Of a stretch of 32,000 bases of DNA, positions 6,816 through 25,630 are shown piece by piece. The DNA lies in assembly GCF_001462395.1 (NCBI RefSeq), contig NZ_LNTB01000002.1:60001-92000 (forward strand), read 5' to 3'. This stretch comes from Pyrodictium occultum. Lineage in GTDB: Archaea; Thermoproteota; Thermoprotei_A; Sulfolobales; Pyrodictiaceae. Position 1 is the stretch's first letter, and every line of letters starts with the position of its first letter. The notes under the pieces are model-generated. The model was given only the letters and a program-made list of their open reading frames with translations, did not search any database and was not told the origin of the DNA. The position numbers were made by a program, and so were the translations under genes.

Positions 6816-6870
6816 CCGTGGAGCCCCGGCAGCCCCCGGGGAGCGGCTCTCGGAGGGATGACGGCTGTAG

Positions 6871-7509: not shown

Positions 7510-8362
7510 AGCCTTTAGACTCGTCTACGAGGCCGTCGTCCACGGCAGGGCTGTAGAGCCTGGGGAGCTTCTAGAAGAGTGCATCGAGGCCGCCTCGAAG
7601 AACAAAGTGCTGCTAGAGTTTCTGAGGGCTGCAGGCGTGCAGGGGAGGCTGCGGGCCCTGGAGGAGGCGAGGTACAGGCTCTTCCTTGAGGCGCTGCACC
7701 TGGTCTCCAGGGCTCTTAGGGGCCTCAACTACGTGTTCTTCAAGCTGCGCAAGCCTGCGAGGTACGTGCCCTCGGATATAGACGTGCTCGTAGACCCCGG
7801 TGACGCCGCTAGAGCCCGGCGCCGCCTAGAGAGGGTAGGGTTCCGTGTCGAGGTGCTAGAGCCCTACACTATCACCATGAGGAGGGGGCGGGTGATAGTA
7901 GACCTCTACACCTACCCAACAGTGGGCGGTGTGGTCTACCTTGACGGCCCCCGCCTGCTAGAGTATAGGGAGCTGGGGGTTTTCGAGGGCCTCGAGATAC
8001 CCCTACTGGAGAGGCCTCTAGAGGCCCTAGTCGCTGCAGCCCACGCGGTGTATAAGGAGAGGCTCTACACGTTAAACGACTACGTCACCCTAGCCCGCTG
8101 GGGCTCGAGGACCATGCTCCGGCTAGCCGAGGAGCTTGGATGCAGCGACGCTGTACGGGAGGCGCTCCGCATCCACAGCATGGTGTACATGGGGGGTGTT
8201 CTCCCCTACAGGATACCGCTAGCCCGCTGGCTCCTCCTGCTCCTGCGTAAAGCCTCCAGGGACGCTGCGACGCGGGCCACCCTCCCGAACATCGCCAGGG
8301 CTTTCGAGGACCCCCGGTTCGGGGAGCTGGTGAGGTCTAAGCTGCTCCGGGAGACCTACTAG
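7499..8362 (+). CDS. Uncharacterised nucleotidyltransferase (NTP_transf_5-like)
   Basis: GTG start overlapping the upstream stop by 11 nt. The motif FKLRKPARYVPSDIDVLVDPGDAARARRRLERVGFRV resembles the DIDLLV core of the Pfam NTP_transf_5 family. Recognised by eye only. Confidence 0.45.
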   Translation: MNSEAFRLVYEAVVHGRAVEPGELLEECIEAASKNKVLLEFLRAAGVQGRLRALEEARYRLFLEALHLVSRALRGLNYVFFKLRKPARYVPSDIDVLVDPGDAARARRRLERVGFRVEVLEPYTITMRRGRVIVDLYTYPTVGGVVYLDGPRLLEYRELGVFEGLEIPLLERPLEALVAAAHAVYKERLYTLNDYVTLARWGSRTMLRLAEELGCSDAVREALRIHSMVYMGGVLPYRIPLARWLLLLLRKASRDAATRATLPNIARAFEDPRFGELVRSKLLRETY

Positions 8363-8371
8363 CATCGCATC

Positions 8372-9046
8372 CTAGGCTATCCTCCTCAGCCTCCCCTCGG
8401 AGAGCATGTACTCCCTGTCACCGCCGTAGAGCACGCCTAGCTCCGTGGTCGTTATCAGCGCGGCTGCCCCCCTCTCCCTCACATAGTCTCTCAGTAGGCT
8501 TAGCACCGTCTCCCTGGCCTCGTCGTCTAGGCTGGAGAGGGGCTCGTCTGCGACAACCAGGCGCGGCTTCTTCACGAGCGCGCGGGCTATTGCCGCCCTC
8601 TGCCTCTGGCCCCCGCTCACCTCCCCCGGATACCTCTCCTCGAGGCCTTTGAGGCCAAGCCTCTCCAGGAGCATGCTGGCCTCCCTTCTAGCCTCCTCCC
8701 TGCCCACACCCATGAGGCGGAGTGGCAGCGCCACGTTGTCGACCAGGGTTAGGCTTGGCAGGAGCCTACTATACTGGTCTACATAGCCTATATGCTTCAG
8801 CCTCAGCTTTGACCTCTCCTGGTCCCCTGCGCCCGTGACGTCACTCCCCATGAAGACTGTCCTCCCTCTAGTGGGCGCCAGGAGGAGAGCCGCTATCATT
8901 GCGAGCGTTGTCTTCCCCACACCGCTCCTCCCATGCACTACTAGGATCTCGCCCCTCTCCAGGGAGAGGTCGACCTCCCGGAGTATCGTGTCTGCTCCTC
9001 TCTCGAACCAGACACCCCTAAGCTCTAGGATCAACGCCCCCACCAT
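8372..9046 (-). CDS. ABC transporter ATP-binding protein (MacB/LolD/FtsE-like)
   Basis: Walker A HGRSGVGKTT, ABC signature VSGGQRQR, Walker B LVVADEPLSSLD. 224 aa. Confidence 0.9.
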   Translation of the reverse strand: MVGALILELRGVWFERGADTILREVDLSLERGEILVVHGRSGVGKTTLAMIAALLLAPTRGRTVFMGSDVTGAGDQERSKLRLKHIGYVDQYSRLLPSLTLVDNVALPLRLMGVGREEARREASMLLERLGLKGLEERYPGEVSGGQRQRAAIARALVKKPRLVVADEPLSSLDDEARETVLSLLRDYVRERGAAALITTTELGVLYGGDREYMLSEGRLRRIA

Positions 9047-10607
9047 AGAGGTAGGCTTGGACCCAGAAGTTATCGTATACCCTGCTGTACCCCTCCCGGC
9101 TGAAGAGGCCCCCTAACCGGTATATGCTGTGGAAGAACTTGTAGCCAATGCGGTAGTTCTCGTAGTACACTATGTAGAGCTTGCCGGGCCTGGGCGCCCC
9201 GCCTTGGAGCAGCATGGCGGGCACGTCTCTGGAGTCTACGTTCCTCTCCATCAAACCGTAGTAGTAGACCTTCGTGTCCCCCACTAGCGTTAGGTTTCTC
9301 GAGGCATAGGCGAACACAGTGTCGAAGCCCCTGGTCTCACAGAGGGGGTAGTACCAGGTATACGATACCTTATCCCTATAGCTGACTATGTTCACGGATA
9401 CCAGCAGCCCGGAGGCGAGCGAGGCGGCGGCGACAGCTGCCGCGAGAAGCCTCACCCCTCCACCTCCCCTGCCCCACAGGTAGCCCACGAGCAGGGCGAG
9501 CATGGGCACGAGGTAGTCCAGGAACCTGTGGATTATACTGGAGACCCCCGGGGAGCCGAACAGGGCGAATGCCGTGTTGAGCGCTATGAAGAGGCCCAGG
9601 GCCGCCTCCAGGGCGCCTAGCAGCCGGTCGCGGATAAACGCCACCAGGGTGAGCGCAGCCGCTATGGGCGCAGCGTAGGGGAGTATGTGGCTGCTACTCA
9701 TCCTAACCCCTATCATGGCTGCAACCGAGCCCCGGAAGGCGAGTATATAGGCCATAACCGGGATGACCGGTAGCACGGCTGCCGCAGGGCTCACCCGCCC
9801 GGCGAATACCAGGAAGCCGCCATAGATCACAGCAGCGTAGACGAGGTACAGGGCGGCATCGCGTAGACCCAGGGGGAGCTGGAGGCCGTAGCGGCCGTAG
9901 AGGGTGTAGTAGGCGGCGAAGACCAGGGCTTCAAGCGCGGCCAGGAGGAGTAGGCGGGCCCCAGCCCCGGGAGCCGCTAGCCGCAGGCCCTTCAGGCTGC
10001 AGGCGAGCAAGGCGTAGGCAAGCCCAGCGGTAAACCCGGCGGCCATGAAGCTGGCTAGGTGATGCGATACAGCCATCCCGAGGGAGAGCACCGCTGCCAG
10101 GGCGAGGCCCCTGGCCGCCAGGGGCTCCTCCAGGGCGCGGAGGGCTAGGGCTAGGAGGGCGAAAAGCATGGGGTATGCGTAGACCTCCTTGAGGGGGCTC
10201 GAGGTGAACACGAGCAGTGAGGGCGTGAAGCCGAGGACTAGCAGGGATAGAGTAGACGAGCTCCGGTCCAGGATCCTCCGGGCAAACGCGTAGAACGCCA
10301 CCATCATGCCGGCGGCGAGGGCCGCGGTGTAGAGGTACATGTACACCCCTCTAGCTGATAGCCCGAGCACGGCTGCAGAGACGGCGGCCGACAGGATGAC
10401 CCCGGGCCAGTGGTTGTTATAGCCGTCGAACAGCTTGTCTTCCCAGATACGGGCCTGAGGGTTCTCTAGGAGCACCCGGGTGTCGCGGTAGAGGGGCCAG
10501 ACGTCGGTGGAGAAGAGGCTGCCCGACATGTAGGCTGGGAGGAGGCGGGCAAGCACAGCGAGCACCAGTATGGCTGACAGCGCTAGAGCAGCTCTACGCC
10601 CGGCCAT
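9018..10607 (-). CDS. Polytopic membrane protein with a C-terminal Tyr/Trp-rich extracytoplasmic domain (possible GT-C-like enzyme; function unknown)
   Basis: 529 aa. Many hydrophobic segments run from the N-terminus to about residue 400. A hydrophilic tail follows (YRDKVSYTWYYPLCETRGF..LYIVYYENYRIGYKFF). It overlaps both neighbouring genes (14 and 29 nt). No WWDYG oligosaccharyltransferase motif seen. Confidence 0.65.
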   Translation of the reverse strand: MAGRRAALALSAILVLAVLARLLPAYMSGSLFSTDVWPLYRDTRVLLENPQARIWEDKLFDGYNNHWPGVILSAAVSAAVLGLSARGVYMYLYTAALAAGMMVAFYAFARRILDRSSSTLSLLVLGFTPSLLVFTSSPLKEVYAYPMLFALLALALRALEEPLAARGLALAAVLSLGMAVSHHLASFMAAGFTAGLAYALLACSLKGLRLAAPGAGARLLLLAALEALVFAAYYTLYGRYGLQLPLGLRDAALYLVYAAVIYGGFLVFAGRVSPAAAVLPVIPVMAYILAFRGSVAAMIGVRMSSSHILPYAAPIAAALTLVAFIRDRLLGALEAALGLFIALNTAFALFGSPGVSSIIHRFLDYLVPMLALLVGYLWGRGGGGVRLLAAAVAAASLASGLLVSVNIVSYRDKVSYTWYYPLCETRGFDTVFAYASRNLTLVGDTKVYYYGLMERNVDSRDVPAMLLQGGAPRPGKLYIVYYENYRIGYKFFHSIYRLGGLFSREGYSRVYDNFWVQAYLYGGGVDPRA

Positions 10608-11751
10608 CTGGCTTCACCATCCACACGCCTGCAGCAAGCATAGCCGCGCCCAGGGCTAGCGAGGCGGCGAGGATAGAGGCGTCGGGCACCAGGCCAACCC
10701 TGTAGTGCAGTATGCCGAGCCTTACGCCGGGGAGGATCCTCCATGCAGCCGCCGCGGCCGCCAGCCCCGCGGCCGCGTAGTGCGCTAGCGCCAGCGCTGT
10801 GATACAGGCCCTGGCGCTGCGCAGCGGCAGGCCCAGCTCGTGGAGCAGCTCTAGCTCCTCGGAGCTGCCGAGTACAAGCGACTGGCCCAGCGTGTAGAAG
10901 CCTAGGCCTAGGAGGAGGGTGACCGCCGCCTGGAGTGCCAGCAGCAGGCTCCTGCTCAGCCCCACCCTCGAGAGGAGCATGCTGGTGTACGACTCGTAGG
11001 CGCTCGCCGACACCCCTCCACCGTGGGATCTCAGGGCGAGCAGCGCCCTCCCCACCATGCTCTTCTCGGCGGCCGGGAGGCCGAGGAGCCTCACAGCCCT
11101 CTCAAACCCCTCCAGGCTATCGAGGAAGACTATGGCTATAGAGGTGCTGCCCGGGCCCAGCCCCCTTATAGCCATGGCTGTAGCGGGGTTCGTCACCAGC
11201 TCATAGCTCAGCGGGCCGCTAGCGTGGAGCACGCCCTCGACGCGCAGCGCGTAGTCCGAGCGGGTGAAGGGGGAGTAGACGACTATGACGTCCCCCCTAT
11301 GGAGCCCTAGCTCTCTGGCGAGCGCGGAGCCCGGCCACACGCAGCCGATGCAGTGGTCGTCGAAGGGCCTCCCCAGCACCTTGTAGCTGCCGGCCACTAT
11401 GACGAGGTCCTCCCCTCTAACCCCCCGGACAACTATATCCGTGCCATGGTATTCCACGAGCGCCAGTACCTCGTAGACCACCTTCTCTACCCCGGTGAGC
11501 CTGCGGAGGGTCTCCTCGAGCGCGTGCCCGTCAATCCTCGAGGTGAAGGGTGCAAGCGAGTAGGAGGAGAGGACCAGGTAGTAGGGTGTAGGGGCCCGCC
11601 TCGGCTCGGTAATGTAGTCCGGCAGGGTGTAGAGCACGTCGATAATACCCGCGTTAACCAGCACTGCCAGGATGTAGAGCGCTGTAGCCGCCGCTAAGAG
11701 CGCGTAACGCCTAGACTCTAGAACGCCCAAGACGGCCCGCGGGCACGCCAT
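10594..11751 (-). CDS. ABC transporter permease, MacB-like extracytoplasmic domain plus FtsX-type C-terminal helices
   Basis: 385 aa. One N-terminal TM, a ~220-aa soluble domain, then three C-terminal TMs containing LELLHELGLPLRSARA (an FtsX-like loop). Confidence 0.65.
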   Translation of the reverse strand: MACPRAVLGVLESRRYALLAAATALYILAVLVNAGIIDVLYTLPDYITEPRRAPTPYYLVLSSYSLAPFTSRIDGHALEETLRRLTGVEKVVYEVLALVEYHGTDIVVRGVRGEDLVIVAGSYKVLGRPFDDHCIGCVWPGSALARELGLHRGDVIVVYSPFTRSDYALRVEGVLHASGPLSYELVTNPATAMAIRGLGPGSTSIAIVFLDSLEGFERAVRLLGLPAAEKSMVGRALLALRSHGGGVSASAYESYTSMLLSRVGLSRSLLLALQAAVTLLLGLGFYTLGQSLVLGSSEELELLHELGLPLRSARACITALALAHYAAAGLAAAAAAWRILPGVRLGILHYRVGLVPDASILAASLALGAAMLAAGVWMVKPDGRA

Positions 11752-11757
11752 CCCGCG

Positions 11758-12729
11758 TCACCCGCCGCGCTGGACGGCCGCTACAGCCGCGGCCACGGCC
11801 TCTGCGGTGAAGACGCCGGCCAGGGACACGAGGCCCCCGGGGCTGGGGACCGGCTGGAGGGGGGCGGGGGCGCCGAAGAGCCTTAGAGTGTAGAGCGCCG
11901 CATGCATGGCGAAGACTCCGAGGAGCACACCGTAGGCCGACATGAGCAGCCCTAGGAGGCTGAGCGCGAGGGCGAGGGCCAGCCGGGCCTCCTGGAGGGG
12001 GACCCCCATGCTGTAGAGCGTCTCTATATCCCCCTCCAGGGACTGGACGGCCCTCCTGCACGCCATGTAGGCTATAGGCAGGTATACCGCCGCCACAAGG
12101 TAGGCTAGGATCCTGGCATACTCCGAGAGGGCCGCCTCCAGCCCCTCAAGCACCGGCTGCTGGCCGGGGACGCTGCACAGCCTATACTCCTCCCCGGCCA
12201 GGCTACTCCACGCCCCCGCCGCCAGGACTATGGACGCCGCGTAGAGGCCCCCGCCCCCGTGGATGCATGAGACCAGGTAGCTGCGGCAGCCCCCGCCCAT
12301 GCACAGCGTGAGCCTGGAGCCAGGCCTGGCCCCGAGCATGCCCGCCAGGAGGCTTCCGAGGGAGAGCGGGGCCTCCCCGGCCGCCCGGCAGCCGGTAATC
12401 CCCTGGAAGCCCCCGGCATCGACTAGGAGCACGGGGGCCTCCAGCGCCCTGCCCCCAGCCTCTACCCTCGCGAAGGCAAGGTGCACGGTGGTGCAGCCCT
12501 GCGCCCCGGCGCCCGGGGGCAGCAGTAGGAGCGAAGAGCCCTCCCACCGCGCCAGGAGGGGCTTGGCCTCCTCCAGCGCCCTGGGCACGAGGCTGTAGGC
12601 CGACGCCAGCGCCGCCGGCGTAGAGACAGCCACCAGTAGTAGGAGGAGCACATCCCTGTGCATGGCCGCGGAGAGCAGCACCCTCAGCAGCGCTGGGAGA
12701 GAGGCAGCCCTCCCCACGGCAGCCACCAC
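11758..12729 (-). CDS. Second FtsX-type ABC permease-like membrane protein
   Basis: 323 aa with the same layout: N-terminal TM, soluble domain, C-terminal helices with LEGDIETLYSMGVPLQEARL. The start is uncertain (GTG at 12729, or ATG giving MHRDVLLLLL at ~12663). Confidence 0.55.
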   Translation of the reverse strand: MVAAVGRAASLPALLRVLLSAAMHRDVLLLLLVAVSTPAALASAYSLVPRALEEAKPLLARWEGSSLLLLPPGAGAQGCTTVHLAFARVEAGGRALEAPVLLVDAGGFQGITGCRAAGEAPLSLGSLLAGMLGARPGSRLTLCMGGGCRSYLVSCIHGGGGLYAASIVLAAGAWSSLAGEEYRLCSVPGQQPVLEGLEAALSEYARILAYLVAAVYLPIAYMACRRAVQSLEGDIETLYSMGVPLQEARLALALALSLLGLLMSAYGVLLGVFAMHAALYTLRLFGAPAPLQPVPSPGGLVSLAGVFTAEAVAAAVAAVQRGG

Positions 12730-12745
12730 GCTGGCCCATCGGGGT

Positions 12746-13372
12746 TCAGCGGCTCCTCCCCCGGGCCTCGGCCTCGAGCCTCACAAGCCTATACTTCCTA
12801 TAGGCTGCCGCGGCCAGCATGGCGGCCACGTAGACGGTTGTAGCCGCCATTATCGGCTTCAGCCTTATACCCCAGGGGGTGTAGTTGAGCACCAGCCCTA
12901 TCAGCGGGATTACGGCCAGCGAGAGGCCTATGGATAGGGCGAGCCTCTCAAGGGGTGTAAGGCTCCCCTCCTCCGGGTAGAGGGCCTCCACGAGGACGTA
13001 GCCCGGTATGAAGAGCACGTAGATGCTCCCAGCCACGTAGCGTAGAGGCTTGGCTGGCGGCGCCGCCCCCGAGAGGGCCACCGAGGCATGGGTCAGCGCC
13101 ACTAGGGCGACCACGGCCCAGAGCCATAGGCTGTAGTCGAGCCTCAGAAGGTACTCCCGGAGGCTCCTGGGCGGGGAGGGGTCTATGAGCCTCATCCTCC
13201 CGCCGGCTATGTCCTGGTATAGGCTCTTCAGCACGCTGTACAGCTTCTCCCCCCTCTCCAGGCGCTCCCTCACGAGCTGCTCGAGGGTCTTCCCCTCCAA
13301 GGCCCCTCTCTCACCCTGGGCTGACCAGCTTGAGGTATAGGTGGTTCCACCTGCCCGTGTAGACCCAGCCAC
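12746..13372 (-). CDS. DUF1616-like membrane protein (corresponds to the N-terminal, membrane half of canonical DUF1616 proteins)
   Basis: LFIPGYVLVEALYPEEGSLTPLERLALSIGLSLAVIPLIGLVLNYTPWGIRLKP matches the conserved DUF1616 membrane core as I remember it. The track start at 13372 overlaps the upstream gene by 62 nt. A TTG at 13300 would give a non-overlapping start. Confidence 0.6.
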   Translation of the reverse strand: MAGSTRAGGTTYTSSWSAQGERGALEGKTLEQLVRERLERGEKLYSVLKSLYQDIAGGRMRLIDPSPPRSLREYLLRLDYSLWLWAVVALVALTHASVALSGAAPPAKPLRYVAGSIYVLFIPGYVLVEALYPEEGSLTPLERLALSIGLSLAVIPLIGLVLNYTPWGIRLKPIMAATTVYVAAMLAAAAYRKYRLVRLEAEARGRSR

Positions 13373-14255
13373 CCTTCCCCGGGTCGTAGACCCATAGCTC
13401 GAATATCAGTGCTGCTCGCTGGCCCATGAGCCCCCGGGGAGGCTCCACCGGCACCACTACCCTGAATGTCGTGTTGCCGCCGTCTCCCAGGACCCCCCTC
13501 CACTCCATTAGCGGGGGCTCCGGGGAGGGCGTGGTGTTGCTTGGGAGCGTGGAGCCGTTGCCAACCTTGTAGACCACCTTGTAGTATATCGGCTCCCCCA
13601 TGTGGTTGTCGACGAATATGCATAGGGTCAGGTTCTCCCCGGGGTAGGCCTCCGCCGGGTAGTAGCCTATCTTGCACTCCTCGTTGAGCAGGCCTAGCGC
13701 TGTGAACGGCTCTATGCTCCTCGGCCTCAGTATCATAGCCGCCGTGAAGACTGATGCAACCACTATGACCGCCATTATTACGGCGAAAACCTCCTCGTCC
13801 ATTATGAGGCTGCTCCGGCTCCTCCCAGCCGGCCTCGTGGAGACGATCCAGCCCCTCCTAGCCCGGAACCATAGGTAGAGGTAGACGCGGGGTATCAGTA
13901 TGTAGGCGGCGGGGGCCAGCGCGAGCGCGGCTGCGGCAAGACCGTAGCGGCGGACCACCATGCGGAGGTGGATGCCGCGGACTCCGGCCTTCAGGGCCTC
14001 CACAGTGCTGGCGGCGCTTGCCACCGCCGCCTCCGCGCCACTGTAGTCGCCTCGGTTGATCCTCTTCGCGGCCTCGTCGAGCAGCTGGACTATACTGGTT
14101 ACGTTCGCCCCACGGCTGTAGAGGAGTGACGCATCATGCACCAGCGCCCCTATCTTCTGGTCGAGCGCAGCCACCGCGCCACGGCTCCCGGCCGCCGGCT
14201 GGAGCAGCACAGCCGCCAGGAGGGCTATAGCCGCTGGGACCAGGGCTAGGCGCAC
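13311..14255 (-). CDS. Signal-peptide/TM protein with a DUF1616 C-terminal-type beta domain
   Basis: MRLALVPAAIALLAAVLLQPAAG looks like a signal peptide, followed by a helical segment and two TMs. Then EPFTALGLLNEECKIGYYPAEAYPGENLTLCIFVDNHMGEPIYYKVVYKV..HLYLKLV resembles the FTEFYLL..DYP..vgI.NHE..Y soluble half of DUF1616 proteins. Confidence 0.6.
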   Translation of the reverse strand: MRLALVPAAIALLAAVLLQPAAGSRGAVAALDQKIGALVHDASLLYSRGANVTSIVQLLDEAAKRINRGDYSGAEAAVASAASTVEALKAGVRGIHLRMVVRRYGLAAAALALAPAAYILIPRVYLYLWFRARRGWIVSTRPAGRSRSSLIMDEEVFAVIMAVIVVASVFTAAMILRPRSIEPFTALGLLNEECKIGYYPAEAYPGENLTLCIFVDNHMGEPIYYKVVYKVGNGSTLPSNTTPSPEPPLMEWRGVLGDGGNTTFRVVVPVEPPRGLMGQRAALIFELWVYDPGKGGWVYTGRWNHLYLKLVSPG

Positions 14256-14258
14256 CAG

Positions 14259-15545
14259 CTACACCCCGTGCCCCCGGCTGCGCCAGGGCAGGAGCTCCAC
14301 ACCCATGCGGCGGAGCTTCCTCGCCACCAGCTCGGCGCTCCTATACACCCTGTACGCCTCCTCGAGGCTCTCAGCGTCAAGCCAGGGCTTCGCAGGCATA
14401 GCCACTACTACCTCTACGCCCCTCCGCCTAAGCGCGTCCACCAGGTCTAGGGTATCGCGGACCATGTGGAGAACCATGGAGGCTATAAAGGTTCTTCCAG
14501 GCCTAGCCAGGGCATCCACAGCCTCCAGGGGCCCCGCCGGGACCACCCCCGCCCTCCCCGCCAGCCCCCTCAACGCCTGGAGAACCTCCCTGCTGGTCAG
14601 GGGCTCGGCGTACTCGTAGAGCTCCAGCCTCTCAGCGGCCTCGCTCTCCAGTATACGGTCCAGCAGGTAGGCTAGCAGGACCCTTGGGCTAGAGTGGGCT
14701 ATTATCCTGCCCCGCGAGAAGTCGTAGGCTAGTAGGGGCTGCTCCCCCTGCCTCACCGCCGCCACAGCGGCCGAGAGCGCTGCCGAGGCCACAGCGTCGC
14801 ATGTGGCGGGCCCCCTGCACCTGGTGTCGAACACCAGCGCCAGGCCGCCTGCCGGGGCCTCCCTGTAGTCCCTCACCATGAGCCTCTGCGTCCTAGCGGT
14901 GGCTTTCCAGTCGATCCTCCTGGGCAGGTCCCCGGGCACGTACTCCCTGGTCTCGTAGTACTCGCCCCCCATGCTCCTCAGGGCCCAGGGGGCTGGGAGG
15001 CCCTCGCCGGGCCAGGCGCCTAGCCCCCCTAGGCCCAGGAGGCCCAGCGCCTCGAGGACCCGGTAGAGGGTCTCGGGTAGAACCCTCAGCTCAACCCGGG
15101 CCTCCACCCCCCTCCTCAGCCTCAGGAGGCCTAGGGGAGCCTCGAACACCACCACCAGCCGCTGGAGCCTGTAGACCCCGTAGTGGGCTGGGGCGAGCCT
15201 AGCCCTCACCCTCACCCCGGCCCCGTCCACGGGCACAGTTTCCAGGACATGGAGCCAGGCTGGCAGCGACCCCTCGTCGAGGCGGGCGCGGCCCCTGCTG
15301 CAGGCGACTGCTAGCTCCACCACCGGCCTCTCCCACGGCCACAGCCTCCTCTCCACCCGGGGCCCGGCGCTGCAGGACGCCCTCCCCGGGCCCAGGGCCA
15401 GGTAGGCGAGGTCCAGGACCAGGGGGAGAGCCGCCAGCGCCAGGGCTAGGGCTAGCAGAGGGTCCCCCGTAGCCGCGTACAGCGCGGCCAGGGCGGCGGC
15501 TACCGCTGCCAGCCCCGCCCCCCGCTCGGTGAGCTCCACGCTCAA
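14259..15545 (-). CDS. DUF58 domain protein (vWA-like MoxR partner) with N-terminal TM helices
   Basis: EYYETREYVPGDLPRRIDWKATARTQRLMVRDY is the DUF58 signature. 4-nt overlap with the MoxR gene stop. Confidence 0.8.
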   Translation of the reverse strand: MSVELTERGAGLAAVAAALAALYAATGDPLLALALALAALPLVLDLAYLALGPGRASCSAGPRVERRLWPWERPVVELAVACSRGRARLDEGSLPAWLHVLETVPVDGAGVRVRARLAPAHYGVYRLQRLVVVFEAPLGLLRLRRGVEARVELRVLPETLYRVLEALGLLGLGGLGAWPGEGLPAPWALRSMGGEYYETREYVPGDLPRRIDWKATARTQRLMVRDYREAPAGGLALVFDTRCRGPATCDAVASAALSAAVAAVRQGEQPLLAYDFSRGRIIAHSSPRVLLAYLLDRILESEAAERLELYEYAEPLTSREVLQALRGLAGRAGVVPAGPLEAVDALARPGRTFIASMVLHMVRDTLDLVDALRRRGVEVVVAMPAKPWLDAESLEEAYRVYRSAELVARKLRRMGVELLPWRSRGHGV

Positions 15546-16498
15546 ATCTTCGGTACCTCTACCTCCTCGAGCACCCTAGACACTATGGCTGAGGCATCCG
15601 CCCCCTCGGCCTCCCGCTCAGGCCTAAGGACTATCCTGTGGCGCAGCGTGTAGGGTGCCAGCTGCTTCACGTGGTCGGGGATCACGTAGTCCATGCCCTC
15701 TAGGAGGGCCAGCGCCCTGCTACCCTTGTAGAGCCATATCGACGCCCTCGGGGAGGGCCCTAGGAGCACCTCCTCCCTCCTCCTCACAGCGTTTACTACA
15801 TCGACTATGTACTTCCTCACCGAGGGGGCTACGTGCACGCCGCGGGCGGCCCTCCTCAGCTCGGCCACGTCCCGGGGCTCCAGGACCTTCCCCACTCTAG
15901 CCTCGTCTATCTCGTCTATCCTCGACAGCAGCTCCACCTCCATCTTTGGGTCGGGGTAGCTCGAGGCGTAGGAGTAGGCGAAGCGGTCCCTCAGCACGGG
16001 GGTTAAGGGGTAGGTCCCCTCAGAGCCGACGGGCATCTGGGAGGCCACGACCATGAAGGGCTCCGGCAGCCTGAGCGTCTCGCCCTCGATCGTCACCTGC
16101 CCCTCCTGCATCGCCTCCAGCAGCGCGCTCTGCGTCCTTGGGGGTGCCCGGCTGAGCTCGTCGATGAACAGGACGTTTGCGAAGATGGGGCCCTTCCGGA
16201 GCACCCACTCTCCTCTCCGGAGGTCGTAGAAGTAGGTGCCAAGTATGTCCGATGGCAGGAGGTCGGGCGTCATCTGGACTCTTCTAAACACGCCCCCTAT
16301 CACCTGGGCGAAGAGCTTTGCCGTCGTCGTCTTCCCGACCCCTGGAGGCCCCTCTATCAGCACGTGGCCCCCGCTGACCAGGGCGACCGCCAGGAGCCTA
16401 AGGAGGTCCTCGTAGCCCAGTATGTACCTCCTAAGCTCCTCGATGGCCTCGGCCAGCTTCGCGGCCGCGCTGGGCTGCATGACGCATCTCCTCTGCAA
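15542..16498 (-). CDS. MoxR-family AAA+ ATPase
   Basis: Walker A LIEGPPGVGKTT. Walker B and downstream region VLFIDELSRAPPRTQSALLEAMQEGQVTIEG. Size is ~318 aa. The start may be the internal MQPSAAAK. Confidence 0.9.
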   Translation of the reverse strand: MQRRCVMQPSAAAKLAEAIEELRRYILGYEDLLRLLAVALVSGGHVLIEGPPGVGKTTTAKLFAQVIGGVFRRVQMTPDLLPSDILGTYFYDLRRGEWVLRKGPIFANVLFIDELSRAPPRTQSALLEAMQEGQVTIEGETLRLPEPFMVVASQMPVGSEGTYPLTPVLRDRFAYSYASSYPDPKMEVELLSRIDEIDEARVGKVLEPRDVAELRRAARGVHVAPSVRKYIVDVVNAVRRREEVLLGPSPRASIWLYKGSRALALLEGMDYVIPDHVKQLAPYTLRHRIVLRPEREAEGADASAIVSRVLEEVEVPKI

Positions 16499-17447
16499 GC
16501 CTCTTCAGCGTATCCGGGTCCCAGCCGGGGTGGAGCGCCAGGAGTCTTTCAACCTCGCTCTCGGGGCCGGCGCTCCTCCCCCTCCGGCGGGCCGCCCTGC
16601 AGAGCCTCCTGCCCGCCTGGTAGGCTGCCAGGCCCAGAGCCGCCGCCAGGGGGTAGCGGAGCGAGGTCTGGAGGGCCGCTGCCGCAGCGCCTGCCAGCAG
16701 CCTCCTCGCGGCCGTGTAGAGGCCTGGGCTCCACTTGTCCGCGACTATATAGGCCCTCCTCCCCCCGGCCAGGAGCCTCGCGAGCTCCAGGTTGTCCCCC
16801 AGCCCCAGCATGGAGTTTATGAAGACGCTTGAGTCCGCTACCAGGTAGAGCCTCCCCCGCCCCAGCCGCGCCTCGAGGACCGTGCAGAAGGGGCCGTGGG
16901 GCTCCCCGGGGTCGTGGCGGCCGTTCATGTTGGCGTCTATGTAGCTGAATGGCGTGGAGTAGCCTATACACCTCCCCTCCGCGGCCTCGATGAACGTGCC
17001 GTAGTTTAGGTAGACTCTCAGCTCTCTGCCCCCCACCGCGACCCTGGCGAGCGGCAGGTACTGGGAGCGGTGCATGAAGAGGGGGTCTGCCAGCAGCGAG
17101 CCGTTAAGCCTCACCCTCAGCCCCATGAGGGCCAGCAGCGTGTTCGCCGTGCCGAAGTCGTCGGCTACGACCAGCACCCCGCCCCTCTCCACGAAGGCTT
17201 TGAGTGCTCTAGCCTCCTGGGCTGTGAAGGGCCGGCTGGGGCCTATGACGAGGACCAGGCTGTTCCCGGGGAGGCTCCCCGCGTCCATGGCGGCGACGGG
17301 CCTGGCCCCCAGCAGGGCCGCCAGCCTGCTCATGCCGTTCCAGAAGGGGTTGTCTAGGGCGAAGTCGTCGGTCGAGGGCACCAGGGCTATGATCAGCAGT
17401 AGCAGCGCCAGCGAGAGGGCCAGCCCCGCCGCGGCAGCCCTCCTCAC
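16431..17447 (-). CDS. DUF4350-like membrane-anchored protein
   Basis: N-terminal TM, then NSLVLVIGPSRPFTAQEARALKAFVERGGVLVVADDFGTANTLL. This motif is typical of the DUF4350 (GldG-like) proteins that accompany MoxR/DUF58. Confidence 0.55.
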   Translation of the reverse strand: MRRAAAAGLALSLALLLLIIALVPSTDDFALDNPFWNGMSRLAALLGARPVAAMDAGSLPGNSLVLVIGPSRPFTAQEARALKAFVERGGVLVVADDFGTANTLLALMGLRVRLNGSLLADPLFMHRSQYLPLARVAVGGRELRVYLNYGTFIEAAEGRCIGYSTPFSYIDANMNGRHDPGEPHGPFCTVLEARLGRGRLYLVADSSVFINSMLGLGDNLELARLLAGGRRAYIVADKWSPGLYTAARRLLAGAAAAALQTSLRYPLAAALGLAAYQAGRRLCRAARRRGRSAGPESEVERLLALHPGWDPDTLKRLAEEMRHAAQRGREAGRGHRGA

Positions 17448-19273
17448 GGCTCTCCTCCCCCGGCTGTGAGGCTGTGGAGCGCTGCTAGGAGCCTCTCCAT
17501 GCGCCTGCGCAGCTGCTCGAGCAGCCCCCTGGGGCCGCCGGGGCCGTAGGCTATCCTCTCCAGCCCGAGGAAGACCTCCTCCACAGCCCTGTAGATGCTC
17601 TGGGGGAGCCTCCCCCGGATCCTCGCCAGGTACTCCCTGAGCGTGTAGCTGGGCCTAGGCTCCACCCCGGTGGCCTTCCTCAGGGCCTCCAGGAGCCGGT
17701 GGTAGAGGCCCCGTATCCCCCCGCCGCTCCCGGGGGGCTGCTGCGGCGCCGGCTCAGCCGCTCCAGCGGCCCCGCCCCTCCCCGCCCCTCTCCCGCGTCC
17801 ACGCCTCAGCAGGAGGCCCGCCGCGGCAGCCAGCGGTGAAGAGGCTGCTACGAGCGCGGGCGTGTTGTACACCCTGACCCTGATCTCCTCGTCCACGCTC
17901 CTGTAGCTGGGGCTGAGCGGCTCAACGCGGACGTGGATGCTGGCCACCGTGCCTAGGTAGCTGTGGGGCACTCTCAGCTCCAGATCCGCTCTCCTCCCCT
18001 GGAGGGCCAGGCTGAGCCCGGCCTCGGGGCTCGAGACGACTATCCTCGAAACGGTGTCTGTGAGCACCTCCAGCCTGCCGGGCAGCCCGGTGAGGAGCAG
18101 GCTTGGAGCCCTCACCTCTACGTGCGGGGTGAGCCTCCGGACCCGGAGGGCTAGCTGGACAGACGCCGGGCCTATGGCGCCCTGGGGGAGCGTCCTTACA
18201 GTCACCGTGTAGGCTCCCTCGGCCGCGTCCGGGGGGACCCTCACCTGGATCCTGGCCGGGCCCTCGACTGGGCCTAGCAGCTGCCTGCCGGTGAACGGCG
18301 TCTCGACCACCACTCTAAGCCCCCTCATGGTCTCTATCTCTAGCGTGGTGCTCTCCCCGGGGGCCAGGGTGTCCCTGGCAAGCCTCGCCTCGAGGGGAGG
18401 CTCCACGTAGTCCACGTGGACTGTTATGGTCGCCGACCTCGAGTACCTGTAGAGCCCCCTGTCGGGGCCCTGGGGCGTGTACTCGGCGTACACCGGCACG
18501 CTGTGCATGTAGATGTCCAGCCTCGTCTCCAGCGCGTAGCAGCCCCCGGGGCCCGTGACGGCCTCCAGGGTCTCAGGGCCTAGGTGGACTAGCACCCTCC
18601 TACCCGGCAGGGGCTCCCCTGCAGCCGTCTCGAGGCAGCCCGCCAGGTGGAGGATGCCGCCGGGGGCCAGGCTCGCCGGCTCGGCCGTCACGTTTACACG
18701 GGTGGGTGTCAGCTCCACCAGCCCCTGGGCCTCCCTCTCGAGGCTCCTAAGCTCCGCCTCCAGCCTCTCCAGGGCACCGCCTATACGCGCCAGGATCTCC
18801 TCCAACCCCCTGCCGGGTATGCCGTGCCTCTCCAGCTCCCTGGCCGCGTCCCTTAGCTCGTCGTAGGTCACCCTGGCCCCCGTGAGGCTCGTCCTCGCCT
18901 TGTCGAGCAGCTTGGCGGCCGTACCGGGGTCCGACACTGCTATGCTCCTCCTGGCCTCCGCCAGTAGGCTCCTCGTCTCGTTGACCTGAGCGGCGAGCCT
19001 GTCTAGCAGGCTGTTAAGCCTCTCAAGGGTGTAGCGGAGGCCCGCCGGGGCGTAGACCTGCTCCGCGAGGGACAGCCCCGCCCTGGCGGCCGAGAGGTTC
19101 ATTGACCCGATTGCCTCCGCGACCCTGGCGTAGAGGGCCAGGAGGGCTAGGGGGCTGGGCCCCTCCCCCCTCGCGGTGGAGGGGTCCACGTGCCTAGGGG
19201 GCCTGGCGGCCCAGGCTGCCGCCAGGGCGAGCAGGGCCAGGAGGGCTAGGGCTGGGAGTACGCGCCTCCTCAC
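17444..19273 (-). CDS. Large surface protein: signal/TM, coiled-coil, Ig-like beta repeats, TM, RG-rich linker, C-terminal DUF4129-like domain
   Basis: 609 aa. The C-terminus PSYTLREYLARIRGRLPQSIYRAVEEVFLGLERIAYGP resembles DUF4129. The middle part has repeated beta-strand-like segments (TITVHVDY, TTLEIET, YTVTVRT, RVRVEPL). Confidence 0.6.
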   Translation of the reverse strand: MRRRVLPALALLALLALAAAWAARPPRHVDPSTARGEGPSPLALLALYARVAEAIGSMNLSAARAGLSLAEQVYAPAGLRYTLERLNSLLDRLAAQVNETRSLLAEARRSIAVSDPGTAAKLLDKARTSLTGARVTYDELRDAARELERHGIPGRGLEEILARIGGALERLEAELRSLEREAQGLVELTPTRVNVTAEPASLAPGGILHLAGCLETAAGEPLPGRRVLVHLGPETLEAVTGPGGCYALETRLDIYMHSVPVYAEYTPQGPDRGLYRYSRSATITVHVDYVEPPLEARLARDTLAPGESTTLEIETMRGLRVVVETPFTGRQLLGPVEGPARIQVRVPPDAAEGAYTVTVRTLPQGAIGPASVQLALRVRRLTPHVEVRAPSLLLTGLPGRLEVLTDTVSRIVVSSPEAGLSLALQGRRADLELRVPHSYLGTVASIHVRVEPLSPSYRSVDEEIRVRVYNTPALVAASSPLAAAAGLLLRRGRGRGAGRGGAAGAAEPAPQQPPGSGGGIRGLYHRLLEALRKATGVEPRPSYTLREYLARIRGRLPQSIYRAVEEVFLGLERIAYGPGGPRGLLEQLRRRMERLLAALHSLTAGGGEP

Positions 19274-19515
19274 CGCCCGAGCACCTCGGCCACCCTGAAC
19301 CCCACGGCTATGGTGAAGGCTGCGAGGAGCGCGGCGTGGAGCCAGTCCCTACCCCTCCTCGCAGGCCTGAGCACAGCCTTGACCACGGTGTACTCCAGCG
19401 TGTACATCGCTATGTATGCGTCCAGCCTCTCCTCCCCCAGGGCCCAGAGCGTGGACACGGTTAGGGCCACCATGATGGCGAGCAGTGTGTTGGCTAGGCG
19501 GCTCCTATCCACCAT
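19270..19515 (-). CDS. Small two-TM membrane protein, unknown function
   Basis: 81 aa with two hydrophobic helices. 4-nt overlap with the downstream gene start and a 6-nt gap to the upstream gene. Confidence 0.5.
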   Translation of the reverse strand: MVDRSRLANTLLAIMVALTVSTLWALGEERLDAYIAMYTLEYTVVKAVLRPARRGRDWLHAALLAAFTIAVGFRVAEVLGR

Positions 19516-19521
19516 GAGGCT

Positions 19522-20232
19522 CTACCCCTCGGGCCTCCCGACGACTATCCTCCTGGCCCGGGGCCCGGCCCTCCGGTCGGCCTCCAGCAGGGCGCTCCCC
19601 CATAGCAGGGCTGCGGCGGAGGCGGCCACCACCCCGTATATGCTCCCCACGGTGTCCTCGAGGCTCGCCGGAGCCGCCACGCGCTCCCCGTGGACCTCGA
19701 CCACCAGCCTGTCCCCCTGGTCGACGCAGTCCAGCCAGTCGGCTAGGCCTAGGAGGTCTGTGAGCAGGTACCCCACCGCCGCGCACGGCTCCGTGAAGCC
19801 CTCCACCATGCTCCCCGAGACGGGCGAGCGGAGGACCAGGACCGGCCTCCCCCCGCAAACCGTTATCGGCGTGGCCGGGGGCCCGCCGGGGCCGGGGCAG
19901 CCGGCCGCCCCGACGTAGATGTAGACCGTGCCGCCGCTGCTCCGGTACAGGCTCGGCCCCCGGGCCCCGAGGGCCTCCAGGAGCCCGGCTATGTTCGAGA
20001 ACGCGTTCTCGAGGAGCAGGAGGGCCTCCCTCACCCCGGTGCAGGCCTCGGGGGTGAGGTACATGGATGCGCCCACCACCGCCAGGCCCAGCCAGAGGGC
20101 CGTGAGGGGCCCGGGGCCTATGAGCAGGTAGGTGGCCGCCGCGAGCACCGCCGCCGAGACTGCTACGGCTAGCCCAGCTGCCTGGTAGGCGGCCATCGCC
20201 GGGCCTCCCTGCCCCACCGGGGCCCGCGGCAC
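19522..20232 (-). CDS. Membrane protein with a Cys-containing soluble domain, unknown function (first gene of the long minus-strand string)
   Basis: 236 aa from the GTG at 20232. An ATG at 20196 (MAAYQAAGLAV..) is an equally plausible start. Two N-terminal TMs, then a domain with five Cys. Confidence 0.5.
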   Translation of the reverse strand: MPRAPVGQGGPAMAAYQAAGLAVAVSAAVLAAATYLLIGPGPLTALWLGLAVVGASMYLTPEACTGVREALLLLENAFSNIAGLLEALGARGPSLYRSSGGTVYIYVGAAGCPGPGGPPATPITVCGGRPVLVLRSPVSGSMVEGFTEPCAAVGYLLTDLLGLADWLDCVDQGDRLVVEVHGERVAAPASLEDTVGSIYGVVAASAAALLWGSALLEADRRAGPRARRIVVGRPEG

Positions 20233-20238
20233 CTAGCA

Positions 20239-20248
20239 TCTTAAACCC
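20239..20248. promoter_or_regulatory. Candidate shared TATA box (TCTTAAACCC) in the divergent spacer
   Basis: The only AT-rich element between the minus-strand string (start 20232/20196) and the GT2 gene (start 20340). Confidence 0.3.
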
Positions 20249-20339
20249 TCGCATACCGTAGGTGCTAGCCGCGCGGCCTGGAGGCTCCAGGCTCCCTCTC
20301 CCGGGGCCGCGGGGGCTTGCAGGGGTCTTGAGGGCCGGC

Positions 20340-21473
20340 ATGAGGGGCCTGACGGTACTGATACCCGTCCTCGACGAGGCCGAGGCTATAGGCAGGGTTA
20401 TAGACGAGGTCGTCTCGGCGGGCGTCCCCAGGGAGAACATCCTGGTCGTGGACGGGGGCAGCAGGGACGGGACGGTCGAGATAGCCAGGGCCCGCGGGGT
20501 GAGGGTGGTGAGGCAGGAGGGCCGCGGGAAGGCTATGGCTGTCAAGACGGGGCTGCGCCACGTCTCAACCCCCTACGTCCTCGTCATGGACGGGGACTAC
20601 ACGTACCCCGCGGAGTATATACCCGTCCTCTACCGGGTCCTGGTCGAGGGCGGCTACGACCTAGTGATAGGCGCCCGCGTGCCCGAGCGGGGCGCGCAGA
20701 GCCTCGTCTACCGGGTGGGGAACGCGCTGCTCACAAGGCTCTTCAACCTCCTCTTCGGCACCAGGCTTAGCGACGTGCTGAGCGGCATGTACGCGGCCCG
20801 GACCAGGAGGCTCCGGGAGCTGGGCTTCGAGATGCAGGGGTTCAGCATAGAGTCCGAGATAGCCGCCCACGTGGCCTCCACCACGGGGAGGATAGCGGAG
20901 GTCCCCATCAGGTACAGGAGGAGGCTTGGGAGGAAGAAGCTCCGGGTCCTCCACGGCCTGTCCATAGCCAGGGACATGGTCCGGCTCGCGTGGAGGTACA
21001 ACCCCGCCTTCCTCATATTCCTGCTAGGCGGCCTCCTCCTCGCCCCGGGGCTCGGGCTGGGGGGCTGGGTCGCCTACATGTACCTGGCCCACGGGGTCAA
21101 GCACTACGTGAAGGGGCTGGCAGCGGTGGTGCTCTCCTCCACGGGCCTCGCCAGCCTCCTCCTCGCAGTGATGGCCCTCTACCTTAAGAGGGCCGAGATG
21201 AGGCTCCAGAGGAGGCTGGAGGAGCTCGCCGAGAGGCTCAACCGCCTACTGGAAGAGCGCGTCGATGAGGGGGGAGAGGGGCCTGGCGAGCCTCCCAGCC
21301 CTCTCCCCGAGCAGCCCCCGGGCCAGGTCGCGGAGGTCGCGGCGCTCCAGGACCCCCAGCCGGCCGTAGGCGGGGTAGCTGAGCGCGAGGAGGGCGGCGC
21401 CCGCGAGCCAGTGGAGCCCCAGGATCCTGGCCAGGGCAGCCAGCGCCGCGGGCACGGCGGCAGCCCCGCCTAG
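20340..21473 (+). CDS. GT2 glycosyltransferase, dolichyl-phosphate hexose synthase (Dpm1/AglD-like) with C-terminal TM helices
   Basis: MRGLTVLIPVLDEAEAIGRVIDEV..ILVVDGGSRDGTVEIA..VLVMDGDYTYP (D-x-D), then two TMs. Start placed at the ATG at 20340, not the GTG at 20262. The last ~75 codons are low-complexity and antisense to the flippase gene. Confidence 0.8.
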   Translation: MRGLTVLIPVLDEAEAIGRVIDEVVSAGVPRENILVVDGGSRDGTVEIARARGVRVVRQEGRGKAMAVKTGLRHVSTPYVLVMDGDYTYPAEYIPVLYRVLVEGGYDLVIGARVPERGAQSLVYRVGNALLTRLFNLLFGTRLSDVLSGMYAARTRRLRELGFEMQGFSIESEIAAHVASTTGRIAEVPIRYRRRLGRKKLRVLHGLSIARDMVRLAWRYNPAFLIFLLGGLLLAPGLGLGGWVAYMYLAHGVKHYVKGLAAVVLSSTGLASLLLAVMALYLKRAEMRLQRRLEELAERLNRLLEERVDEGGEGPGEPPSPLPEQPPGQVAEVAALQDPQPAVGGVAEREEGGAREPVEPQDPGQGSQRRGHGGSPA

Positions 21474-22745: not shown

Positions 22746-22763
22746 CAGGCCCCGGGAGGGAGG

Positions 22764-22773
22764 CTTTTAACCC
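22764..22773. promoter_or_regulatory. Candidate TATA box (CTTTTAACCC) in the divergent spacer
   Basis: The only AT-rich element between the flippase start (22745) and the 22817 gene. Confidence 0.35.
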
Positions 22774-22816
22774 CCGCCGCCCCACGCCGCCCGCACAGGC
22801 CGGAGGGGCCCCGGGA

Positions 22817-23248: not shown

Positions 23249-23300
23249 AGCCCCCCGGGAGCCGTGAAGGCCCACAGCCCAGAGACGGCAGGCACCGGGG

Positions 23301-23431
23301 CAGCGGACACAGCCCTGCTAGAAGCCGCCGAGCCCCACACAGACGAGCATAACACGGCAGCACGGACTACGACATGCAGGAAACAGTGCCAGACACGCCA
23401 GCAGTGGACACAGCCCTGCTAGAAGCCGCCG
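23301..23431 (+). repeat. 30-bp direct repeat (29/30 identical) with 101-bp offset, bracketing the GT2 start codon
   Basis: cag[c/t]ggacacagccctgctagaagccgccg at 23301-23330 and 23402-23431. The core 26 bp is perfect. Confidence 0.9.
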
Positions 23432-24528: not shown

Positions 24529-24548
24529 AAGGGCGGGTTCCAGAACCC

Positions 24549-25619: not shown

Positions 25620-25623
25620 GTGA
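25619..25623 (+). promoter_or_regulatory. GGTGA Shine-Dalgarno-like site
   Basis: ggtga lies 7 nt upstream of the ATG at 25631, a typical crenarchaeal internal-operon ribosome site. Confidence 0.4.
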
Positions 25624-25630
25624 CAATTTT

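Follow-up and report, generated by a model that had tools for sequence, protein, structure and literature searches.

A conserved gene cluster of Pyrodictium occultum links a MoxR/DUF58 cassette to a type VII ABC module and a predicted GT-C-fold glycosyltransferase

What does a string of twelve tightly packed genes in the archaeon Pyrodictium occultum encode: one envelope machine, or independent systems that share a neighbourhood? The string occupies positions 8372-20232 on the minus strand of a 32,000-nt stretch of DNA (contig NZ_LNTB01000002.1, positions 60,001 to 92,000), which is called the window below and from whose first letter all positions are counted. A preliminary description of the window had read the string as a MoxR/DUF58 cassette, a DUF1616 pair and a MacB/FtsX-type ATP-binding cassette (ABC) exporter joined in one transcription unit. 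We divide it into Part A (G01-G08) and Part B, which consists of G09-G12 and a divergently transcribed glycosyltransferase gene (GT2) on the other side of G01. The two parts travel together repeatedly, mostly in Desulfurococcales-type Thermoproteota, and we lean towards a reading in which the string forms a single conserved functional unit that glycosylates and assembles the envelope. Counting the GT2, the unit is made of thirteen genes, which are given here in transcription order from G01, the GT2 last.

8372-20232, minus strand: twelve-gene string G01-G12, from the listing of open reading frames (ORFs)
19522..20232, minus strand: G01, small membrane protein with an N-terminal hydrophobic hairpin, a soluble domain of ~150 residues and a C-terminal hydrophobic segment
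19270..19515, minus strand: G02, 81-residue protein with two or three predicted transmembrane (TM) segments
17444..19273, minus strand: G03, 609-residue surface protein with a signal or anchor, a long extracellular part and a C-terminal DUF4129 domain
16431..17447, minus strand: G04, DUF4350 (arCOG01314) protein with a signal peptide, its extracellular domain GldG/flavodoxin-like
15542..16498, minus strand: G05, MoxR-type AAA+ ATPase, cytoplasmic (Pfam AAA_3 and AAA_lid_2)
14259..15545, minus strand: G06, DUF58 protein with a pair of hydrophobic helices at the N terminus, a DUF58 signature and a vWA-like C-terminal region
13311..14255, minus strand: G07, immunoglobulin (Ig)-like half of DUF1616 with a signal or anchor and two further hydrophobic segments ahead of it
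12746..13372, minus strand: G08, membrane half of DUF1616, its short N-terminal part cytoplasmic
11758..12729, minus strand: G09, first type VII (FtsX/MacB/LolC-like) permease, with TM1, an extracytoplasmic domain and three TM segments
10594..11751, minus strand: G10, second type VII permease with a MacB-like extracytoplasmic core domain (AlphaFold2 model)
9018..10607, minus strand: G11, 529-residue GT-C-fold glycosyltransferase with ~13 TM segments and a small C-terminal extracytoplasmic domain (AlphaFold2 and Foldseek)
8372..9046, minus strand: G12, ABC ATPase of the LolD/FtsE/YtrE/MacB type (Pfam ABC_tran, 109.5 bits)
20262..21473, plus strand: GT2, polyprenyl-phosphate glycosyltransferase similar to ArnC, DPMS and GtrB, divergent from G01

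Loci for comparison were collected by scanning one genome per species and the metagenomes of the Joint Genome Institute with a G11 profile, and by looking up the gene context of homologues. The 45 loci obtained (L002-L046) and the window formed 28 lineages at 85% G11 identity, and twelve family profiles were mapped onto all loci. The lineages that carry names belong to Desulfurococcales, Ignisphaera and Staphylothermus, plus one bin labelled Sulfolobales. All twelve genes were present in identical order, together with the divergent GT2, in Staphylothermus hellenicus (CP002051.1, L002). The twelve orthologues share 33-74% amino acid identity with the proteins of the window, and the DNA has 38% G+C there versus 68% here. 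Since each of the twelve ORFs has an S. hellenicus orthologue, they are real genes. The order was collinear in the window, in L002 and in L040, which belongs to a third lineage (L040/L020).

Other lineages kept the parts together in different arrangements. The order G09-G10-G11-G12 was constant wherever the whole module was visible (~14 lineages), and the G11 gene lay between the second permease gene and the ATPase gene wherever its neighbours could be seen, except in two relatives that have no ABC module. Genes of the G01-G08 set (MoxR cassette or DUF1616) shared a locus with the ABC/GT-C module in 14 of 28 lineages, which is a lower bound of unknown bias, as half of the 28 lineages were represented by short contigs. 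L006 and L013 have the cassette in divergent orientation to the ABC module. DUF1616 genes follow the ATPase gene or the ABC module in L006 and L010, and the MoxR gene follows the ABC module in L024, L027 and L044. In L014 and L037 the MoxR cassette runs straight into G09 with no DUF1616 gene between them. The worry raised with the preliminary description, that the modules might be neighbours in this genome only, is clearly dispelled by S. hellenicus and the 14 lineages.

Two loci were informative beyond gene order. P0094 is one protein of 680 residues that combines the membrane half of DUF1616 (Pfam E 4e-18) with the GT-C domain in a single chain, and on its contig its gene follows a G10-like fragment. 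L044 (CP072660.1, 20438-21599, a complete genome) contains G09-G12 and the GT2, then a MoxR gene on the same strand and four genes without Pfam match; the run continues with a DUF4350 gene and a DUF58-like gene and ends with an Exosortase_EpsH (archaeosortase-family) gene. The last gene is a further hint of a system that acts on anchored surface proteins. A linkage that survives rearrangement, with a fusion of components in addition, is strong comparative evidence for a functional tie, though not for a single transcript. Nor is a single transcription unit needed for the functional link, as L006 and L013 show, where cassette and ABC module are transcribed away from each other. Judged by this comparison of gene order and sequence, chance adjacency of the two parts is excluded.

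A rival reading is that of two independent envelope systems that share a neighbourhood, which would work in the same compartment and might be co-regulated, but would not be one machine and would not need each other. We consider this possible, if rather unlikely. No cassette or DUF1616 gene was found in the visible flanks of the ABC/GT-C module in L026 (7.8 kb upstream and 5 kb downstream), L008 and L036; the module can therefore function, or at least be encoded, alone. The divergent transcription of the parts in L006 and L013 agrees with two systems, and S. hellenicus carries, exactly at the G08/G09 boundary, an extra gene for a soluble protein of 127 residues (L002, 8464-8847) followed by a 137-nt gap, neither of which exists in the window. 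The arCOG01314 system, which Part A resembles as described below, is widespread in archaea and appears without the ABC module in the text and Table 2 of its description (PMC5898192). On the other side, several arrangements keep the parts together in 14 lineages, a pattern that is difficult to account for unless linkage is selected. The DUF1616 genes moreover move with the ABC module, and not with the MoxR cassette, in L006, L010 and L027, and P0094 joins the membrane half of DUF1616 to the GT-C itself.

G09 and G10 had been called FtsX-type permeases in the preliminary description. No Pfam or NCBIfam match to FtsX or MacB_PCD was obtained for either of them, while comparison of folds and profiles supported the type VII assignment. 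The AlphaFold2 model of G10 had a pLDDT of 80, and all matches listed by Foldseek against the Protein Data Bank (PDB) were type VII permeases or their extracytoplasmic domains, led by full-length LolC/LolE (E 2.5e-13) and followed by MacB, HrtB, YbbP, BceB and YtrF. Two relatives pointed in the same direction: the G10 homologue P0022 carries PF12704, and in the distant locus L045 the gene at the equivalent permease position carries Pfam MacB_PCD and FtsX. G09 was aligned to the G10 family over the full length by hhalign (probability 95%, E 2.9e-8), and so G09 and G10 are regarded as paralogous permeases, as LolC and LolE are. In profile searches against the PDB, G09 and G10 gave LolC, YbbP and LolE as top matches, all weak; for G09 these were the TM regions of YbbP, LolC and LolE at E 0.08-2. 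Direct searches with the sequences of G09, G10 and G11 against PDB sequences returned nothing usable. The predicted permease fold of G09 is thus based on its profile alignment to the G10 family, and that of G10 on the model. In Ignisphaera a polytopic membrane protein of ~270-290 residues is encoded directly upstream of G09 (L011, 1219-2022; L012, 6967-7827; L013, 6763-7572); its family was otherwise unseen across the loci.

The ATPase G12 is most similar, among single-domain PDB relatives, to YtrE (2.6e-46) and LolD (3.6e-35), then to FtsE, YbbA, BceA and MacB. Its Walker A, Q-loop, signature motif, Walker B with Glu and D-loop are canonical. The His of the H-loop is replaced by Thr (T201), and the motif reads ITTTE/D instead of xxTHD in 18 of 18 lineages aligned. 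The H-loop histidine supports hydrolysis in canonical ABC proteins. A threonine at this position suggests slow or regulated ATP turnover, which would suit a switch better than a pump. With their threonine H-loop ATPase, G09, G10 and G12 define a branch of the type VII ABC transporters that is archaeal and divergent.

This branch resembles LolCDE and other type VII systems (MacB, FtsEX, HrtBA, BceAB, YbbAP and YtrEF) in having two paralogous four-TM permeases, a large extracytoplasmic domain between TM1 and TM2 of G09 and G10, and a separate LolD-like ATPase. It differs from them in being archaeal, in lacking a Pfam FtsX or MacB_PCD match on G09 and G10, in the Thr that replaces the H-loop His in all lineages, and in the absence of a LolA-, MacA- or PcsB-type partner. 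A further difference is the GT-C gene embedded in the operon.

That gene, G11, had been described as a polytopic protein of 529 residues and left without an assignment. It is polytopic, and a fold can now be assigned from a model. The AlphaFold model built from 15 homologues had a pLDDT of 83 and a pTM of 0.85. Its best 27 PDB matches in Foldseek were all GT-C enzymes (E 2.7e-7 to 2.3e-2, probability 1.00), among them STT3 (E 2.7e-7), AglB, DPY19, ALG12, PglB, ArnT and AftA/B/D. According to this model, G11 is a GT-C-fold glycosyltransferase. Its sequence had no match to a solved GT-C or to a Pfam family, and the profile of the 65-sequence family against the PDB was also empty; a weak PMT_2 match was seen in only 2 of the 65 relatives. 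In a HMMER scan of 1.84 billion representatives, 379 relatives were found at E ≤1e-3 and 124 at E ≤1e-30, the 379 being representative clusters at 50% identity, and nearly all were 490-540 residues long. G11 thus belongs to a small, discrete and previously undescribed family that has no Pfam model.

Residues D35, D61, K140, E141, H182, H183, H360 and R361 are invariant in close relatives of G11, and the family keeps the block FDGYNNxWPG. D35, which follows TM1 directly in the motif FSTDVWPL, does not vary among the 15-16 close relatives aligned, and its conservation across 65 distant relatives is at least 90%. It is a conserved acidic residue of the first extracytoplasmic loop and may have a catalytic role. 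An oligosaccharyltransferase of the STT3/AglB/PglB type was considered and rejected, as the WWDYG motif is absent: the stretch that matches this site reads S-Y-T-W-Y-Y-P-L-C-E, in which only W418, Y420 and E424 are invariant, with no WWD.

The divergent GT2 ORF, with a probable start at the ATG at 20340, matched Pfam Glycos_transf_2 with 89 bits. Its nearest solved structures were ArnC (E 2.7e-12, residues 28-311, through the membrane helices) and the dolichyl-phosphate mannose synthase (DPMS) of P. furiosus (E 3.5e-10), and its translation has two hydrophobic stretches beyond residue 250. Orthologues with 51-70% identity adjoin the ABC/GT-C module in six other lineages, among them L026 and L036, where no MoxR cassette is in view. 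The GT2 is the most conserved partner of the module and the thirteenth conserved member of the unit. A GT2 beside a GT-C is the classic two-step arrangement, in which the cell makes a lipid-phosphate sugar on the inside for use on the outside; GtrB/GtrC, Ppm1/Pmt and AglD/AglS of Haloferax volcanii are other such pairs. The adjacent ArnC/DPMS-like GT2 suggests that G11 uses a sugar donor linked to a lipid phosphate. Together, the GT-C fold of G11 and this GT2 shift the functional reading from generic remodelling to glycosylation.

The likeness to ArnC/ArnT-type pairs is found in a GT2 with C-terminal TM helices and a polytopic GT-C with an invariant Asp in its first outer loop. In contrast to the known lipid-phosphate-sugar pairs, G11 has no sequence similarity to their GT-C families, no gene for a GtrA-type flippase was identified, and the GT-C gene is locked in an ABC operon, an arrangement not found in the literature searched.

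The same enzymes are compatible with an envelope-stress or antimicrobial-resistance module, in which the GT2 and the GT-C would modify a membrane lipid head group in the manner of ArnC/ArnT, the ABC unit would expel a membrane-active compound or shield the cell from it in the manner of BceAB or MacB, and the MoxR cassette would be a bystander. Among solved structures the GT2 is closest to ArnC, and the fold matches of the GT-C include ArnT; G12 and G10 count BceA, BceB, YtrE/F and MacB among their relatives. Yet STT3, AglB and DPY19, which glycosylate proteins, outscored ArnT as fold matches of G11, and no Bce-type sensor kinase or regulator was present in any locus. Nor does a resistance module explain why the linkage to surface-protein genes persists or why DUF1616 occurs in a fusion, and we think it quite improbable.

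Pfam bore out the DUF4129, DUF4350, MoxR, DUF58, split DUF1616 and ABC_tran calls of the preliminary description. G01, which is 43% identical to its S. hellenicus orthologue, fits the slot of a membrane protein with 2-3 TM segments in the arCOG01314 system. G02 (64% identity) adjoins MoxR genes in eight lineages (window, L002, L006, L010, L040, L024, L013 and L044). In G03 (36% identity) residues 523-592 matched DUF4129 with 30.9 bits, above the cut-off of 24.8. A TM segment at 474-496 was scored by a simple scan in the S. hellenicus G03 orthologue only, the window G03 showing the N-terminal segment alone; should the hydrophobic stretch around residue 475 serve as a TM anchor, as that orthologue suggests, the DUF4129 domain would lie in the cytoplasm. 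G04 matched DUF4350 with 68.2 bits and ABC_transp_aux with 24.9 bits, the latter under its cut-off. It has an N-terminal hydrophobic segment, and a C-terminal anchor may be present as well, to judge from the segment at 257-275 that was scored in the S. hellenicus orthologue only.

G05 matched AAA_3 with 170 bits (cut-off 27, E 2.5e-50) and AAA_lid_2 with 71 bits (cut-off 22.7). Its translation shows intact Walker A (GPPGVGKT) and Walker B (FIDELS) motifs, and it is 74% identical to the S. hellenicus orthologue. G06 matched DUF58 with 36.7 bits (cut-off 23.4), a match that covers only positions 1-47 of the 216 of the profile. The DxSxS of the metal ion-dependent adhesion site (MIDAS) is missing from G06, where the aligned position reads D-T-R-C-R-G (residues about 240-260). 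In the family it is replaced by D-x-x-C-x-G-x-x-T-C-D with two conserved cysteines (seven sequences from six distinct lineages). DUF1616 is split between two genes: G07 corresponds to profile positions 131-236 (42 bits) and G08 to positions 3-121 (109.7 bits). The halves are in reversed order, the Ig-like half G07 preceding the membrane half G08 (12746-14255), and this is therefore no simple gene fission. G07 is 54% identical to its S. hellenicus orthologue and is broken into two ORFs in L006, L007, L027 and L040.

MoxR and vWA-like genes are also known from conflict or defence systems, as in NTP-dependent ternary systems, and G05 did have a secondary Pfam match to bpMoxR (E 1.1e-11). Its AAA_3 match is far stronger (E 2.5e-50, as given above). 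PADLOC gave G05 no more than generic P-loop matches and left the nine further proteins tested without any; genes for a beta-propeller, an effector or a nuclease are absent, and the neighbours are genes for glycans and surface proteins. On the PADLOC outcome we rejected a defence role, which seems hardly credible here.

Does any described system correspond to Part A? The arCOG01314 system of Makarova, Galperin and Koonin (2015) is a comparative-genomics prediction, widespread in archaea, of a machinery for secretion or membrane remodelling, with DUF4350, MoxR, vWA/DUF58, Ig-like surface proteins, DUF1616 (arCOG02884) and small membrane proteins as its components (PMC5898192). DUF4350 was noted there to resemble GldG, an accessory protein of ABC transporters (PMC5898192). 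G01-G08 match this parts list, with an Ig-like surface protein probable. G04-G06 consist of a DUF4350 protein encoded beside MoxR and a vWA protein; G07 and G08 together span the DUF1616 profile, G03 and G07 have a putative Ig-like fold, and G01 and G02 are small hydrophobic proteins. The cluster differs from the described system in its split and reversed DUF1616, in its DUF58 protein without a MIDAS, and in the ABC, GT-C and GT2 genes that are collinear and conserved alongside. No ABC transporter, GT-C or GT2 appears in the text and Table 2 of that description (PMC5898192). The preliminary claim that no description joins these modules was thus wrong for MoxR, DUF58, DUF4350, DUF1616 and the small membrane proteins (PMC5898192), and holds for the ABC, GT-C and GT2 genes. 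The linkage within G01-G08 had already been predicted, and the new part is the join of the ABC/GT-C/GT2 genes to the cassette. No paper joining GT-C, MacB and archaea was found in the literature searched, nor any functional or experimental follow-up on DUF4350 or arCOG01314.

A related core is known from bacteria. The mycobacterial cluster Rv3689-Rv3695 encodes DUF4350, MoxR, DUF58, SpoIIM and RDD proteins (PMC8191103). It shares with the present cluster the DUF4350-MoxR-DUF58 core and flanking membrane proteins, and differs in being bacterial and in having SpoIIM and RDD instead of DUF1616, the ABC module and the GT-C. In H. volcanii, the DUF1616 protein HVO_2173 is a membrane or surface N-glycoprotein (PMC8241124). 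By locus-tag number, from which alone adjacency could be judged, it stands next to HVO_2174 and HVO_2175, and these two are prominent in a paper on cell-shape determinants (PMC10869688). They were considered as a lead to the MoxR cassette and dropped, the papers being concerned with the cell-shape determinants of H. volcanii.

How might the thirteen genes work together? Part A would be the arCOG01314 system: MoxR, its membrane-tethered DUF58/vWA-like partner, DUF4350 and DUF4129-tailed surface proteins, small membrane proteins and the split DUF1616. Part B would be a previously unrecognised set of a LolC/LolE-like heterodimeric permease pair, a LolD-like ATPase, the GT-C and the divergent GT2. 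By family membership, the GT2 would place a sugar on dolichyl phosphate at the cytoplasmic face of the membrane. The lipid-linked sugar would then be flipped, and on the outer face the GT-C would hand the sugar to an acceptor. This is most likely a surface protein or the glycan it carries, such as the Ig-like proteins of the cluster or the S-layer-like protein nearby. The type VII ABC unit would be no pump; by analogy with LolCDE, HrtBA and FtsEX, ATP binding and hydrolysis in the cytoplasm would be converted into movement of the extracytoplasmic domains. A substrate or product embedded in the membrane might thereby be extracted or presented to the GT-C, or the enzyme might be switched on. FtsEX, for comparison, switches on cell-wall hydrolases. 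The DUF1616 membrane half may dock on the GT-C, a step supported by their natural fusion in the relative P0094. Finally, the MoxR/DUF58 pair would assemble or remodel an extracellular scaffold of DUF4350 and Ig-like proteins from the cytoplasmic side, as predicted in 2015.

The most specific form of this model holds that the type VII ABC complex includes the GT-C as a physical subunit, docked via the DUF1616 membrane domain, that outward glycosyl transfer is driven or gated by cytoplasmic ATP through mechanotransmission, and that the MoxR/vWA cassette assembles the scaffold. We put it forward as a speculation that is rather unlikely. Should it be true, it would be the first ATP-gated extracytoplasmic glycosyltransferase, and the widespread archaeal (and actinobacterial) DUF4350/MoxR/DUF58 system would receive its first functional assignment.

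Several points weigh against the reading as one glycosylation and assembly apparatus, besides the short contigs behind the count of 14 lineages and the modules without a cassette in L026, L008 and L036. The distant GT-C relatives in L046 and probably L041 occur without the ABC module. The fusion of DUF1616 to the GT-C is known from a single contig of 2.85 kb. G11 resembles solved GT-C enzymes in fold only (TM-score about 0.5) and not in sequence, and the ATPase activity of G12, which has no H-loop histidine, is uncertain.

The envelope role proposed in the preliminary description, assembly or remodelling, fits the membrane and secreted products and the glycan surroundings, but generic remodelling is incomplete where glycosylation is indicated. 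DUF4350, MoxR, DUF58 and DUF1616 are among the most widely conserved uncharacterised membrane systems of archaea, and a related core exists in Actinobacteria. Since 2015 there has been no functional lead for the cassette beyond secretion or remodelling, and surface glycosylation is now the first concrete one. In this clade, gene order, repeated rearrangement and one fusion tie the cassette to enzymes whose chemistry can be guessed and assayed. It becomes a testable question whether the system builds or decorates a glycoprotein envelope. The GT-C family of G11 and the ABC branch with a threonine H-loop are of interest for the mechanism of both enzyme classes. Experiments should be feasible in S. 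hellenicus, an isolate in culture whose genome has been sequenced completely.

The layout of the string was reproduced as first described: over 8372-20232 there are twelve co-directional minus-strand ORFs that overlap or are separated by at most 16 nt, and the 4-nt overlaps at 19270-19273, 17444-17447 and 15542-15545 were all recovered. With longest-ORF starts, the junctions from G01 to G08 are a gap of 6 nt, overlaps of 4, 4, 68 and 4 nt, a gap of 3 nt and an overlap of 62 nt, and those from G08 to G12 are gaps of 16 and 6 nt and overlaps of 14 and 29 nt. Four genes probably start later, according to the alignment with S. hellenicus, the codons and the GGAGG/GAGG-like motifs upstream, and for G12 also because of a gene call of 220 residues (L001). 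The likely starts are the ATG at 20196 for G01, with a GGAGG-like motif ahead of it, the ATG at 16480 for G05 (overlap 50 nt), the TTG at 13300 for G08 (overlap 12 nt) and, as an alternative, the TTG at 9034 for G12 (overlap 17 nt). These revisions alter the junction numbers, and the packing stays tight. Hydrophobic segments were found in 10 of the 12 products, the MoxR protein G05 and the ABC ATPase G12 having none, in keeping with the statement that nearly every product is membrane-anchored or secreted. NCBIfam gave no family for any of the ten proteins tested, and G01, G02, G09, G10 and G11 had neither a Pfam nor an NCBIfam match.

Signals for transcription were sought along the same strand. 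The statement that there is no internal AT-rich promoter-like element was roughly right, yet seven AT-rich 10-mers lie inside the string. The sole TATA-like hexamer on the coding strand within it, by a simple TATA scan, was TTTATA at 14489-14484, inside G06. The AT-rich box at 20239-20248, GGTTTAAGAT on the minus strand, sits in the short stretch that separates the divergent genes G01 and GT2, which is probably a promoter region:

20197..20339, no strand assigned: probable divergent promoter region between G01 and the GT2, recognised from sequence

An oligo-T run (T5+) is the usual archaeal terminator signal, and an oligo-T scan showed none on the minus-strand transcript from 6454 to 24766. 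No tRNA and no Rfam family was detected in the window by tRNA and Rfam scans.

The cluster is flanked by glycan genes and by an S-layer-like protein. The flanking features are as follows.

3-3671, minus strand: secreted protein of at least 1223 residues, the S-layer-like gene of the preliminary description, with a signal peptide and many N-x-S/T sequons
5275-5751, minus strand: apparent truncated NAD epimerase/dehydratase gene, 158 residues, matching profile positions 143-240 of 240 only
21246-22745, minus strand: polytopic membrane protein of 499 residues, rich in Ala, Leu and Gly, without Pfam match, overlapping the 3' end of the GT2 ORF by 228 nt
24000-31000: low-G+C island with sharp borders, 36-46% G+C against 62-75% over 4-23 kb
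28998-29591 and 29625-30122, within the island: split GT4 glycosyltransferase with its N-terminal and C-terminal halves in separate ORFs

The S-layer-like gene runs off the start of the window, and its product had no Pfam family; it is a candidate acceptor for the glycosyltransferase of the cluster. The polytopic protein of 499 residues could be the missing flippase (Wzx/MOP-like). In the G+C profile of the window, the values of 62-75% extend across 4-23 kb. The low-G+C island beyond contains genes for GT4 glycosyltransferases, an NAD-dependent epimerase/dehydratase, an S-adenosylmethionine (SAM) methyltransferase and a protein of 585 residues without Pfam match, and looks like a horizontally acquired island of glycan genes. 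The split GT4 gene is possibly a frameshifted pseudogene.

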